From Escherichia coli (GTDB lineage Bacteria; Pseudomonadota; Gammaproteobacteria; Enterobacterales; Enterobacteriaceae): a stretch of DNA of 64,000 bases. Under the pieces are notes generated by a model that was not told the origin of the DNA, ran no database searches, and was given only the letters and a program-made list of their open reading frames with translations. A program made the position numbers and the translations under genes. The number at the start of each line of letters is the position of its first letter. Position 1 is the stretch's first letter. Below are positions 29,415-59,104 of this stretch, piece after piece. The stretch is from assembly GCF_003334785.1 (NCBI RefSeq), contig NZ_QOWV01000012.1, one strand, 5' to 3'.

Positions 29415-30278
29415 TCACAAATACAGCGCCGGAAATATCAACCGGCCCACCCCGCGCACCTTTAATGCATCAGCCAACGGCTCAACGTCTTCCGGCGTGG
29501 CGCTCGCCCAGCTTTGCGCCTCGCCATACACGCCGTGGGCATGAAACGCGTTCAGGCGTACCGGAACATCGCCAAGTCCCTTGATAAACGCCGCCAGTTC
29601 TTCGATGTGTTGCAAATAATCCACCTGGCCAGGGATTACCAGCAAACGCAGTTCCGCCAGCTTGCCGCGCTCTGCCAGCAAACAGATGCTGCGCTTAATC
29701 TGCTGATTATCGCGTCCGGTTAATTGTTGATGACATTCGCTACCCCATGCTTTGAGATCGAGCATTGCGCCGTCACACACCGGGAGTAATTTTTCCCAGC
29801 CGGTTTCGCTCAACATGCCGTTACTGTCCACCAGACAGGTGAGATGGCGCAGTTGCGGATCGTTTTTGATAGCAGTAAACAGCGCCACTACAAACGGCAG
29901 TTGGGTCGTGGCTTCGCCGCCGCTTACCGTTATCCCTTCAATAAACAGCACCGCTTTGCGGACATGGCTAAGCACTTCGTCCACGCTCATGGATTGCGCC
30001 ATCGGCGTGGCATGTTGCGGACACCTCTTCAGGCAGGTATCACACTGCTCGCAGACCGCAGCGTTCCACACCACTTTGCCGTCAACAATCTGCAACGCCT
30101 GATGCGGACACTGTGGCACGCACTCTCCGCAATGATTACAGCGCCCCATCGTCCACGGATTGTGACAGTTTTTGCAGCGCAGATTGCAGCCCTGCAAAAA
30201 CAGAGCCAGACGACTGCCTGGCCCGTCAACGCAGGAGAAGGGGATAATCTTACTGACTAAAGCGCATCTGCTGTTCAT
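29415..30278 (-). CDS. yjjW: glycyl-radical enzyme activating enzyme (radical SAM, two auxiliary ferredoxin-like 4Fe-4S motifs)
   Basis: 287-aa ORF with CNLRCKNC (CX3CX2C radical SAM) plus [11 protein letters not shown] and [11 protein letters not shown] clusters. Confidence 0.9.
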
Positions 30279-31800
30279 GGCTTATCACGCGCGGCTGGCG
30301 TTCCAGAATACGAGTGTTGCGTGCGGCTTCTTCGCCCAGCCAGGTGGTGTTGGTGCGTGAACCTTCGGCGCGATATTTTTCTAAATCCGACAAACGCACC
30401 ATATAACCGGTAACGCGAACCAGATCGTTACCGCTGACATTGGCGGTAAATTCACGCATTCCGGCTTTAAAGGCACCGAGGCAAAGCTGTACCAGCGCCT
30501 GCGGATTACGTTTGATGGTTTCGTCGAGCGTCAGAATGTCGCTGATGCCGGAATAATAATAAGCATGATGCGGGGCGACAGTTTGCAGATGGGTGATCGG
30601 ATCTGGCTCATCGCCATAGGGTAAACGCGCGCCCGGCGTGGTGCCGATATCGGAACTGATCCCCGACTGTGCGTGTAACATGGCGCGTTTTTGCCAGCCA
30701 TATTTCACGGGGGTATTGGCGACAAACTCCGCCAGTTGCGCGCTGATGCGATAACCCACTTCATTTGCGGCGGCTTCTTTACCGTAGCGCGCGGCAATCC
30801 CTTCTTTCTCACACAGCAAGTTAACCGCTTCCGCCAGCCCATACATGCCAAACATTGGCACAAAACGTTCAGGGTTAATCAGCCCTTCTTTCACCAGGAA
30901 GCTATTCTCAAAGAAGTGTGATTGTTGATAGAGGAATTCACACCGCGCATCGATGATGGCGATCTGCTGCTGGCAGTAGTGCGGTAGAGTGCGCGTAAAG
31001 AAGTCATCCAGCGATTCGCTGCGCTCGGCAATGGCTTTCAGGTTAAGGCGTACCAGCGTGCTGCCACCACCCGCCAGCGGCAGTGAGTTGTAACAGCTCA
31101 CAATCCCGTAGCCCCCTTTTGTGAAAATTTTATCATGCACCGGACCGTTGGCGATGTGCGGTTTGCTACATTCACAGATGTTCTTCGCCACTTCCAGCAG
31201 TAGGTCATCAGGGGTGATTTCAGGATCGTAGATAAAGGTCAGGTTCGGTGAAACCTGCTTCAACTCTGCGTCTGCACGTAAGATTGCACGGGTAATGGGC
31301 GAATCAGACGGGCCGATATTGGCGTGCATAAAGGCGTCTGGCAGGGTTCTGTCGAGGTAACGCCAGAAACGTTTTATTCGAATATCGATCTCGTCTTGTG
31401 TTAGAATTCTAACATACGGTTGCAACAACGCATCCAGTTGCCCCAGGTAGACCGGCATCGATGTGACCGACGGTACGTGGTGGTAAAGAATGGTCAGCAG
31501 AGAGAGTGCGTCATCAAGATCTTTCGCGCCTTCCAGCTCCAGCCATTCGGAACCGTTCGCCAGAAAACGGGCGTAATCGGGTAAGACATAGCGCGGTTTG
31601 TACGGCGCATGACCTTCAAACATATCGCAGATTACACCCTCATCCAGCGCACGGCGGGCTTCGGCAGGCAGCTGCGGATAAGGCAGATTGTTTTCTGCTT
31701 CAAGTGCCAGAAAATGGCGCTTCTGCTCCGGGCTAAGCACTGGGCTGGTGACAATTTGCTGGCAACGTTGTTGCAGTGCATTTTCATCAGAAGTGGGCAT
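30250..31800 (-). CDS. yjjI: putative glycyl-radical enzyme YjjI (DUF3029), substrate unknown
   Basis: 516-aa ORF; C-terminal RVTGYMVRL matches glycyl-radical signature RV[ST]G[YF]; overlaps downstream activase gene yjjW by 29 nt. Confidence 0.88.
31120..31135. promoter_or_regulatory. Candidate DeoR operator OE
   Basis: TGTGAAAATTTTATCA (12/16 match to TGTTAGAATTCTAACA) lying 279 bp upstream of O1, matching the reported OE spacing; inside yjjI coding sequence. Confidence 0.5.
31399..31414. promoter_or_regulatory. DeoR operator O1 (deoP1)
   Basis: Perfect 16-bp palindrome TGTTAGAATTCTAACA, exactly 599 bp upstream of the second site, as known for deoP1/deoP2; inside yjjI coding sequence. Confidence 0.8.
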
Positions 31801-31889
31801 CTTCTTTTCCTTTTATGCCGAAGGTGATGCGCCATTGTAAGAAGTTTCGTGATGTTCACTTTGATCCTGATGCGTTTGCCACCACTGAC

Positions 31890-31990
31890 GCATTCATTTG
31901 AAAGTGAATTATTTGAACCAGATCGCATTACAGTGATGCAAACTTGTAAGTAGATTTCCTTAATTGTGATGTATATCGAAGTGTGTTGCG
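31890..31990 (+). promoter_or_regulatory. deoP2 region with CRP/CytR-type sites
   Basis: TGTGA-containing half sites (AATTGTGATGTATATCGAAGTGTG, CAGTGATGCA) just upstream of O2; assignment from known deoP2 architecture, positions approximate. Confidence 0.45.
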
Positions 31991-31997
31991 GAGTAGA

Positions 31998-32013
31998 TGT
32001 TAGAATACTAACA
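31998..32013. promoter_or_regulatory. DeoR operator O2 (deoP2)
   Basis: TGTTAGAATACTAACA, near-perfect palindrome about 45 bp upstream of deoC ATG. Confidence 0.8.
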
Positions 32014-32057
32014 AACTCGCAAGGTGAATTTTATTGGCGACAAGCCAGGAGAATGAA

Positions 32058-32837
32058 ATGACTGATCTGAAAGCAAGCAGCCTGCGTGCACTGAAATTGA
32101 TGGACCTGACCACCCTGAATGACGACGACACCGACGAGAAAGTAATTGCTCTGTGTCATCAGGCCAAAACTCCGGTCGGCAATACCGCCGCTATCTGTAT
32201 CTATCCTCGCTTTATCCCGATTGCTCGCAAAACGCTGAAAGAGCAGGGCACCCCGGAAATCCGAATCGCTACGGTAACCAACTTCCCACACGGTAACGAT
32301 GACATCGAAATCGCGCTGGCAGAAACCCGTGCGGCAATCGCCTACGGTGCAGATGAAGTTGACGTTGTGTTCCCGTACCGCGCGCTGATGGCGGGTAACG
32401 AGCAGGTTGGTTTTGACCTGGTGAAAGCCTGTAAAGAGGCTTGCGCGGCAGCGAATGTACTGCTGAAAGTGATCATCGAAACCGGCGAACTGAAAGACGA
32501 AGCGCTGATCCGTAAAGCGTCTGAAATCTCCATCAAAGCGGGTGCGGACTTCATCAAAACCTCTACCGGTAAAGTGGCTGTGAACGCGACGCCGGAAAGC
32601 GCGCGCATCATGATGGAAGTGATCCGTGATATGGGCGTAGAAAAAACCGTTGGTTTCAAACCGGCGGGCGGCGTGCGTACTGCGGAAGATGCGCAGAAAT
32701 ATCTCGCCATCGCAGATGAACTGTTCGGTGCTGACTGGGCTGATGCGCGTCACTACCGCTTTGGTGCTTCCAGCCTGCTGGCAAGCCTGCTGAAAGCGCT
32801 GGGCCACGGCGACGGTAAGAGCGCCAGCAGCTACTAA
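32058..32837 (+). CDS. deoC: deoxyribose-phosphate aldolase
   Basis: ORF 32034..32837; start at [29 protein letters not shown] (259 aa); recognised DeoC. Confidence 0.96.
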
Positions 32838-55707: not shown

Positions 55708-58170
55708 ATGCGAGTGTTGAAGTTCGGCGGTACATCAGTGGCAAATGCAGAACGTTTTCTGCGGGTTGCCGATATTCTGGAAAGCAATGCCAGGCAGGGG
55801 CAGGTGGCCACCGTCCTCTCTGCCCCCGCCAAAATCACCAACCACCTGGTGGCGATGATTGAAAAAACCATTAGCGGCCAGGATGCTTTACCCAATATCA
55901 GCGATGCCGAACGTATTTTTGCCGAACTTTTGACGGGACTCGCCGCCGCCCAGCCGGGATTCCCGCTGGCGCAATTGAAAACTTTCGTCGACCAGGAATT
56001 TGCCCAAATAAAACATGTCCTGCATGGCATTAGTTTGTTAGGGCAGTGCCCGGATAGCATTAACGCTGCGCTGATTTGCCGTGGCGAGAAAATGTCGATC
56101 GCCATTATGGCCGGCGTGTTAGAAGCGCGTGGTCACAACGTTACCGTTATCGATCCGGTCGAAAAACTACTGGCAGTGGGGCATTACCTCGAATCTACCG
56201 TCGATATTGCTGAGTCCACCCGCCGTATTGCGGCAAGTCGTATTCCGGCTGATCACATGGTGCTGATGGCAGGCTTCACCGCCGGTAATGAAAAAGGCGA
56301 ACTGGTGGTACTTGGACGCAACGGTTCCGACTACTCCGCGGCGGTGCTGGCTGCCTGTTTACGCGCCGATTGTTGCGAGATTTGGACGGACGTTGACGGG
56401 GTCTATACCTGCGACCCGCGTCAGGTGCCCGATGCGAGGTTGTTGAAGTCGATGTCCTACCAGGAAGCGATGGAGCTTTCCTACTTCGGCGCTAAAGTTC
56501 TTCACCCCCGCACCATTACCCCCATCGCCCAGTTCCAGATCCCTTGCCTGATTAAAAATACCGGAAATCCTCAAGCACCAGGTACGCTCATTGGTGCCAG
56601 TCGTGATGAAGACGAATTACCGGTCAAGGGCATTTCCAATCTGAATAACATGGCAATGTTCAGCGTTTCCGGCCCGGGGATGAAAGGAATGGTCGGCATG
56701 GCGGCGCGCGTCTTTGCCGCGATGTCACGCGCCCGTATTTCCGTGGTGCTGATTACGCAATCATCTTCCGAATACAGTATCAGTTTCTGCGTTCCGCAAA
56801 GCGACTGTGTGCGGGCTGAACGGGCAATGCAGGAAGAGTTCTACCTGGAACTGAAAGAAGGCTTACTGGAGCCGCTGGCGGTGACGGAACGGCTGGCCAT
56901 TATCTCGGTGGTAGGTGATGGTATGCGTACCTTGCGTGGGATCTCGGCGAAATTCTTTGCCGCGCTGGCCCGCGCCAATATCAACATTGTCGCTATTGCT
57001 CAGGGATCTTCTGAACGCTCAATCTCTGTCGTGGTAAATAACGATGATGCGACCACTGGCGTGCGCGTTACTCATCAGATGCTGTTCAATACCGATCAGG
57101 TTATCGAAGTGTTTGTGATTGGCGTCGGTGGCGTTGGCGGTGCGCTGCTGGAGCAACTGAAGCGTCAACAAAGCTGGCTGAAGAATAAACATATCGACTT
57201 ACGTGTCTGCGGTGTTGCCAACTCGAAGGCACTGCTCACCAATGTGCATGGCCTAAATCTGGAAAACTGGCAGGAAGAACTGGCGCAAGCCAAAGAGCCG
57301 TTTAATCTCGGGCGCTTAATTCGCCTCGTGAAAGAATATCATCTGCTGAACCCGGTCATTGTTGACTGCACCTCCAGCCAGGCAGTGGCGGATCAATATG
57401 CCGACTTCCTGCGCGAAGGTTTCCACGTTGTCACGCCGAACAAAAAGGCCAACACCTCGTCGATGGATTACTACCATCTGTTGCGTCATGCGGCGGAAAA
57501 ATCGCGGCGGAAATTCCTCTATGACACCAACGTTGGGGCTGGATTACCGGTTATTGAAAACCTGCAAAATCTGCTCAATGCTGGTGATGAATTGATGAAG
57601 TTCTCCGGCATTCTTTCAGGATCGCTTTCTTATATCTTCGGCAAGTTAGACGAAGGCATGAGTTTCTCCGAGGCGACCACGCTGGCACGGGAAATGGGTT
57701 ATACCGAACCGGATCCGCGAGATGATCTTTCTGGTATGGATGTGGCGCGTAAACTATTGATTCTCGCCCGTGAAACGGGACGTGAACTGGAGCTGGCGGA
57801 TATTGAAATTGAACCTGTGCTGCCCGCAGAGTTTAACGCCGAGGGTGATGTTGCCGCTTTTATGGCGAATCTGTCACAGCTCGACGATCGCTTTGCCGCG
57901 CGCGTGGCGAAGGCCCGTGATGAAGGAAAAGTTTTGCGCTATGTTGGCAATATTGATGAAGATGGCGTCTGTCGCGTGAAGATTGCCGAAGTGGATGGTA
58001 ATGATCCGCTGTTCAAAGTGAAAAATGGCGAAAACGCCCTGGCCTTCTATAGCCACTATTATCAGCCGCTGCCGTTGGTGCTGCGCGGATATGGTGCGGG
58101 CAATGACGTTACCGCTGCTGGTGTCTTTGCCGATCTGCTGCGTACCCTCTCATGGAAGTTAGGAGTCTGA
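55708..58170 (+). CDS. thrA: bifunctional aspartokinase I / homoserine dehydrogenase I
   Basis: 820-aa [53 protein letters not shown]...; recognised ThrA. Confidence 0.98.
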
Positions 58171-58171
58171 C

Positions 58172-59104
58172 ATGGTTAAAGTTTATGCCCCGGCTTCCAG
58201 TGCCAATATGAGCGTCGGGTTTGATGTGCTCGGGGCGGCGGTGACACCCGTTGATGGTGCATTGCTCGGAGATGTAGTTACGGTTGAGGCGGCAGAGATA
58301 TTCAGTCTCAACAACCTCGGGCGCTTTGCCGATAAGCTGCCGTCAGAACCACGGGAAAATATCGTTTATCAGTGCTGGGAGCGTTTTTGCCAGGAGCTTG
58401 GCAAGCAAATTCCAGTGGCGATGACTCTGGAAAAGAATATGCCGATCGGTTCGGGCTTAGGCTCCAGCGCCTGTTCGGTGGTCGCGGCGCTGATGGCGAT
58501 GAATGAACACTGCGGCAAGCCGCTTAATGACACTCGTTTGCTGGCTTTGATGGGCGAGCTGGAAGGACGTATCTCCGGCAGCATTCATTACGACAACGTG
58601 GCACCGTGTTTTCTAGGTGGTATGCAGTTGATGATCGAAGAAAACGACATCATCAGCCAGCAAGTGCCTGGGTTTGATGAGTGGCTGTGGGTGCTGGCGT
58701 ATCCGGGGATTAAAGTCTCGACGGCAGAAGCCCGGGCTATTTTACCGGCGCAGTATCGCCGCCAGGATTGCATTGCGCACGGGCGACATCTGGCAGGCTT
58801 CATTCACGCCTGCTATTCCCGTCAGCCTGAGCTTGCCGCGAAGCTGATGAAAGATGTTATCGCTGAACCCTACCGTGAACGATTACTGCCAGGCTTCCGG
58901 CAGGCGCGGCAGGCGGTCGCGGAAATCGGCGCGGTAGCGAGCGGTATCTCCGGCTCCGGCCCGACCTTGTTCGCTCTGTGTGACAAGCCGGATACCGCCC
59001 AGCGCGTTGCCGACTGGTTGGGTAAGAACTACCTGCAAAATCAGGAAGGTTTTGTTCATATTTGCCGGCTGGATACGGCGGGCGCACGAGTACTGGAAAA
59101 CTAA
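58172..59104 (+). CDS. thrB: homoserine kinase
   Basis: 310-aa [27 protein letters not shown]..., GHMP kinase motif [10 protein letters not shown]. Confidence 0.98.

Follow-up and report, generated by a model that had tools for sequence, protein, structure and literature searches.

It is highly probable that the 64,000-nucleotide stretch of Escherichia coli DNA analyzed here (the window) carries the three classical DeoR operators of deoCABD, that the promoter deoP1 and the operators O1 and OE lie antisense within the gene yjjI, and that this overlap imposes purifying selection at the DNA level on yjjI in Enterobacteriaceae and Hafniaceae. The operators O1, O2, and OE are already known and have been textbook material since the 1980s. 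That O1 and OE overlap yjjI follows implicitly from existing genome annotation, and the searchable literature contains no discussion of this. The deo element is a classic model system for repression over long distances through DNA looping, and its identification adds nothing new. What is added is modest and evolutionary: quantitative evidence from ~80 species that the regulatory module dominates the synonymous and local protein evolution of yjjI, along with a simple frame argument for the phase and spacing of the operators.

In the mechanism we favor, the regulatory part of which follows the K-12 literature, O1 overlaps the -10 element of deoP1 and O2 that of deoP2, with OE serving as an upstream auxiliary site. 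Multimeric DeoR would bind all three sites, looping O1 to O2 over 599 bp and OE to both of the others, and the looped repressor would lock both promoters until deoxyribose-5-phosphate releases it. All synonymous positions in O1 and OE are frozen, the rare codons AGA and CTA are fixed, and segments of the YjjI protein that vary freely in distant homologues are likewise frozen. The protein in turn limits the operators, leaving them one usable phase and holding O1 and OE in that phase, 93 codons apart.

Genes and DeoR operators of the yjjI–deoC region

The features of the region are listed in Table 1. The segment from 30200 to 32900 matches several E. coli chromosomes at 100% identity. Of 5426 complete genomes, 5424 contain the region, and of its 7669 matching places in E. 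coli genomes, three are in records labeled as plasmid. The spacer between yjjI and deoC is 257 bp in K-12 MG1655.

Table 1. Genes, operators, and promoter elements of the yjjI–deoC region, in window coordinates.
Feature	Position	Strand	Description
yjjW	29415..30278	-	Glycyl-radical activase; TIGR04041; 29-nt overlap with the 3' end of yjjI
yjjI	30250..31800	-	YjjI-family glycyl radical enzyme, 516 aa; hosts OE, O1, and deoP1
OE	31120..31135	none	DeoR operator TGTGAAAATTTTATCA, 12/16 to the palindrome; yjjI codons 222–227 (HDKIFT)
Candidate -35/UP region of deoP1	31357..31383	+	ATAACGCCAGAAACGTTTTATTCGAA; yjjI codons ~140–148; putative promoter role
O1	31399..31414	none	DeoR operator, perfect 16-bp palindrome TGTTAGAATTCTAACA; yjjI codons 129–134 (YVRILT)
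Extended -10 of deoP1, TGtTAGAAT	31399..31407	+	TG at 31399–31400, TAGAAT at 31402–31407; read from the sequence
Predicted yjjI promoter	31834..31874	-	-10 TACAAT (31839 down to 31834); FNR-like box TTGATCCTGATGCG (31861–31874)
CRP site of deoP2	31965..31980	+	TGTGATGTATATCGAA; conserved in spacer alignment A2
O2	31998..32013	none	DeoR operator TGTTAGAATACTAACA, one mismatch; yjjI–deoC spacer, 45 bp before the deoC ATG
deoC	32058..32837	+	TIGR00126; first gene of deoCABD; target of deoP1 and deoP2

The minus-strand open reading frame of yjjI matches TIGR04040 with 788 bits (cutoff 498) over residues 11–504. The match to the family (TIGR04040 / PF11230) is full length, lies above the curated cutoff, and includes the operator-bearing residues. 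The YjjI homologues are themselves full length and conserved in their N-terminal part, and the RefSeq annotation of yjjI gives the same 516 amino acids as the reading frame found here. We conclude that yjjI is a genuine, full-length gene and that its start codon is not downstream of the operator sites, because the family model covers residues 11–504. The shorter protein for which an earlier interpretation of this DNA, made from the letters alone (the sequence-only reading), had allowed is thereby set aside.

The sequence-only reading had also proposed that two palindromes 599 bp apart are O1 and O2, that a weaker site 279 bp further upstream is OE, and that O1 and OE fall within codons of yjjI on the opposite strand. 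Each of these proposals was borne out. The palindrome (TGTTAGAA-TTCTAACA / TGTTAGAA-TACTAACA) is matched at 16 of 16 positions by O1, at 15 of 16 by O2, and at 12 of 16 by OE. The distance from O1 to O2 is 599 bp, start to start, and OE lies exactly 279 bp upstream of O1, which is the distance that Valentin-Hansen et al. (1986) and Dandanell et al. (1987) are said to have given. In yjjI, O1 is read as the codons TAT GTT AGA ATT CTA ACA and OE as CAT GAT AAA ATT TTC ACA. In K-12 MG1655, O1 is found at 4616664–4616679, inside b4380 (yjjI), and O2 at 4617263–4617278, in the yjjI–deoC spacer; both have the same sequence as in the window and the same 599-bp spacing.

Both palindromes agree in every letter with the DeoR-binding sequences given in the literature (PMC5326754), and the DeoR-repressed deo promoters are reported to be 599 bp apart (PMC3334521). 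The third operator, OE, has been placed ~300 bp further upstream (PMC8053113), which agrees with the site found here. Electron microscopy has revealed loops among all deo sites, and quantitative in vivo data on looping have been obtained (PMC8053113). Natural repression by looping reaches ~900 bp (PMC4217526); the span from OE to O2 is 878 bp (599 + 279).

Two sites with at most three mismatches to the palindrome were found, as compared with 0.18 expected. Sites with four mismatches number only two in the whole 64 kb, and one of these is at the predicted position of OE; by our own arithmetic, the chance of a match of at least 12/16 is ~4e-5 per position. That the palindromes arose by chance, or that yjjI is mis-annotated and starts downstream of them so that there is no true overlap, is exceedingly improbable. 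Nothing beyond the weak 12/16 match of OE, taken alone, speaks for either possibility. Chance is opposed by the excess of observed over expected sites at the exact spacing and by conservation in ~80 species (see below), and mis-annotation by the TIGR04040 match and by the conserved N-terminal part of the homologues. The sole other four-mismatch site, at 58157–58172 (AGTTAGGAGTCTGACA), fits chance, as ~2 are expected per 64 kb.

The deo promoters

O1 overlaps the -10 region of deoP1 (P1) and O2 that of deoP2. The sequence TGtTAGAAT occurs inside both palindromes, and the -10 element of deoP2 (TAGAAT, 32001–32006) lies under O2. An extended -10 motif (TGnTAGAAT) is found in each palindrome, as expected from the known location of O1 and O2 over the -10 elements of the two promoters. 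From its position, deoP1 is predicted to start transcription near 31414, and its leader would extend ~645 nt to the deoC ATG, running antisense through yjjI codons 1–129. No transcriptome evidence of such antisense transcription was found in the supplements of two E. coli transcript-mapping papers, which contain neither yjjI nor deoC as names.

deoP1 was missed by a generic sigma-70 scan, since this promoter lacks a good -35 element and depends on its extended -10. Just upstream of O1, in the block that constitutes the candidate -35/UP region, third codon positions are conserved as well.

The CRP site of deoP2 is the motif under the yjjI/deoC peak of a CRP ChIP-seq study in ETEC (PMC4287617). 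The same study assigned the motif CGTACCGTCGGTCACA (31463–31478) to a CRP peak inside yjjI (PMC4287617). This second site, ~60 bp downstream of O1, has only ordinary codon-type conservation across species, and it may be a weak CRP site, or the signal there may have spilled over from the looped deo complex.

Conservation of the operators across species

A single scan of species-representative genomes yielded 80 yjjI loci. In every locus that was long enough, except that of Proteus, deoC is divergently adjacent to yjjI (76 species loci). The arrangement occurs in Escherichia, Salmonella, Citrobacter, Enterobacter, Lelliottia, Kosakonia, Kluyvera, Hafnia, and Edwardsiella, among others. All 79 loci other than that of Proteus have a sequence with 0–2 mismatches to the palindrome at the position of O1, the changes being mostly AGA to AAA (R to K). 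At the position of OE, these 79 loci have 3–5 mismatches, and the 16-mer is identical in most species. A counterpart of O2 with 1–5 mismatches was present in every intergenic region examined, and is conserved less than O1.

Across species, O1 and O2 are 567–675 bp apart, most often 599–603 bp, and the spacings fall into groups of 567–568, 589–592, 596–604, 612, 626, and 675 bp. This variability is compatible with a loop that can form over different distances. In Hafnia and Edwardsiella, the spacer between the two genes is ~460–470 bp, and the best O2-like site is located 185–219 bp before deoC.

Synonymous variation was then compared along yjjI. Of 511 six-codon windows, the one with the lowest raw synonymous entropy is at OE (0.038 bits), followed by that at O1 (0.077 bits); the mean for the gene is 1.11 bits. 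The third-ranked independent region of low entropy is the overlap of yjjI and yjjW (30250–30278, yjjI codons 508–516), and this dual-coding overlap constitutes an internal positive control of the scan. In an amino-acid-matched scan, O1 ranked first and OE was the next independent region. A gene-wide permutation gave P < 2e-4 for O1 and P = 0.006 for OE, values that are optimistic, as the permutation was carried out on related species, in which every column shares the same tree, and ignores phylogenetic non-independence. The rare codons AGA, CTA, and ACA are each used at nearly 100% at O1, whereas elsewhere in yjjI AGA accounts for 3.4% of Arg codons, CTA for 3.2% of Leu codons, and ACA for 10.5% of Thr codons.

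Both operators are thus frozen at the codon level across ~80 species, which supports the claim of the sequence-only reading that the overlap constrains both yjjI and the operators. This pattern of conservation supports the proposal that the embedded deoP1 operator region constrains codon choice in yjjI. Within E. coli, exact 30-mers consisting of a site and its 7-bp flanks were found in 4494 of 5426 genomes for O1 and in 5160 for OE, as compared with 3890 and 3968 for two controls; the misses are explicable by variable third positions in the flanks. These counts are only weakly supportive and not specific to the sites.

Reading frame and operator phase

The operator palindrome contains TAG in one reading frame and TAA in another, and its sole open frame encodes V-R-I-L-T. 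With stops in two of the three frames, the phase of O1 within yjjI is forced, and this holds for either orientation, since the site is palindromic. OE is in the same phase as O1, and the distance between the two must therefore be a multiple of three (279 bp, equivalent to 93 codons).

O1 is flanked by Y129 and T134, which are invariant in Enterobacterales, and three residues between them vary in Morganellaceae. The four mismatches of OE to the palindrome are located in the codons of D223, K224, and, twice, F226 (TTC instead of CTA). No change at F226 was seen within Enterobacterales, whether or not the species has the operator, though distant homologues do not conserve this residue. A protein requirement at Phe226 probably explains, or caps, the weak strength of OE.

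Loci without adjacent deoC and distant homologues

Four lineages were examined in which yjjI is found without an adjacent deoC: Proteus cibi, Moellerella, Providencia, and one metagenome-assembled genome (MAG) of Enterobacterales. The MAG keeps the same synteny and has only deoB- and deoD-like genes upstream. All four lineages have 8–15 mismatches to the palindrome, and have different amino acids at the positions of O1 and OE (e.g., YVGELT, YIGQQT, YVANYT, and HAGAFD). In distant YjjI homologues, both operator segments vary in sequence and length and are prone to insertions and deletions. Hence, the freest parts of the protein correspond to the most frozen DNA in the clade having the deo operators.

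These observations also bear on whether the conservation might serve yjjI itself rather than DeoR and deoP1, for example through programmed pausing of ribosomes at AGA and CTA, which are rare codons, or through a structure in the mRNA. Such an account would accommodate the rare codons fixed at O1, but we consider it very unlikely: the conserved blocks line up with the published DeoR palindrome at single-base precision, OE is equally frozen and contains no rare codons, and the blocks are lost, as DNA and as amino acids, in those yjjI genes that do not adjoin deoC. In addition, an Rfam scan of 30900–32200 matched nothing.

In Moellerella (locus L082, 2147–3421), a NupC-type nucleoside transporter gene immediately precedes yjjI and has the same orientation. 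In the Enterobacterales MAG (locus L085, 547–2693), the deoB- and deoD-like genes are divergently upstream and there is no deoC. No nucleoside genes were found near four distant yjjI–yjjW loci. A nucleoside-related function of YjjI, considered on the basis of gene neighborhood, was rejected as weak, being seen in Enterobacterales only and absent at the four distant loci. The neighborhood signal is weak because the deoB–deoD case is the same syntenic locus and because the four distant loci are without nucleoside genes.

Relation to known intragenic operators

The K-12 deoCABD regulatory region was reportedly characterized by Dandanell and Hammer (1985), Valentin-Hansen et al. (1986), Dandanell et al. 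(1987), and Amouyal et al. (1989). The element in the window is the same one, with identical 16-mers, the 599-bp spacing, and OE at the same position, and does not differ from it in any respect. The original work on the K-12 deo region predates the annotation of yjjI.

Auxiliary operators that act by looping from within genes include lacO2 in lacZ, lacO3 at the end of lacI, and galOI in galE. Internal operators have also been described in deoR and galS (PMC3334521). As with lacO2 and galOI, the arrangement in yjjI has a repressor site inside an open reading frame, and according to the literature this site acts cooperatively with a distant operator close to the promoter. Unlike in those cases, the host reading frame is a divergent and functionally unrelated neighbor on the opposite strand, and yjjI holds a primary operator with a complete promoter (deoP1/O1) in addition to the auxiliary operator OE. 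Synonymous variation is suppressed at the operators, as it is in the 29-nt overlap of yjjI and yjjW. However, the second constraint at the operators is protein–DNA recognition and promoter function, and not a second reading frame.

The region is thus a complete promoter–operator module that lies antisense in an unrelated enzyme gene and is kept base for base across Enterobacteriaceae and Hafniaceae. By overriding codon preference and freezing protein segments that are otherwise variable, the module offers a clean natural example of a regulatory code superimposed on a protein code. It also carries a warning, in that rewriting yjjI with synonymous codons would disrupt the regulation of deo.

Expression of yjjI and possible cross-regulation

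The predicted yjjI promoter lies within the O1–O2 loop and within the ~645-nt leader of deoP1, and O1 and OE are in the transcribed body of yjjI. In the alignment of spacers (A2), the -10 element TACAAT and the sequence TTGATCC, which begins the FNR-like box, are invariant. The box is centered ~41 bp upstream of the inferred yjjI start, and the promoter looks like one of the class II FNR type. A ChIP peak of FNR has been reported in the yjjI–deoC intergenic region, and FNR activates yjjI (PMC3688515; PMC2634741). In Yersinia, yjjI is induced anaerobically. The invariant TACAAT and FNR-like box match the ChIP peak, the activation by FNR, and the anaerobic induction.

The placement of this promoter raises the possibility, which we regard as doubtful, that yjjI–yjjW is a hidden member of the DeoR/deo circuit, dampened by DeoR and interfered with by induced deoP1. 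The sequence-only reading had likewise raised an effect of DeoR looping on yjjI–yjjW expression as a possibility. DeoR bound at O1 and OE could act as a roadblock to RNA polymerase on yjjI, or the loop could trap the yjjI promoter. Transcription from induced deoP1 could collide head-on with that of yjjI, being antisense to the first ~387 nt of the gene. Regulation of yjjI–yjjW by the embedded elements would extend, and not replace, the explanation favored here, and we likewise hold it to be unlikely. The geometry is in its favor, with a predicted FNR-dependent promoter placed between O1 and O2 inside the deoP1 leader and with both O1 and OE in the transcribed part of yjjI, as are, weakly, the nucleoside-related neighbors (nupC in Moellerella and deoB–deoD in one MAG). 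However, the searchable literature contains no paper naming both yjjI and deoR, neither gene name of the yjjI–deoC pair appears in the two transcript-mapping supplements, nucleoside genes are absent near the four distant yjjI–yjjW loci, and yjjI co-varies with FNR and nitrate genes rather than with deo genes. Were there such cross-regulation, an orphan anaerobic glycyl radical enzyme would be coupled to deoxynucleoside availability, with possible cross-talk between deo induction and the uncharacterized YjjI/YjjW system.

Two further promoter-like sequences were noted within yjjI. The minus strand of OE reads TGaTAAAAT, and the generic scan returned no promoter-like hit other than this one (TCGCCA-16-TAAAAT). 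O1, being a perfect palindrome, has TGnTAGAAT on both strands, and could also be an internal promoter in the sense direction of yjjI.
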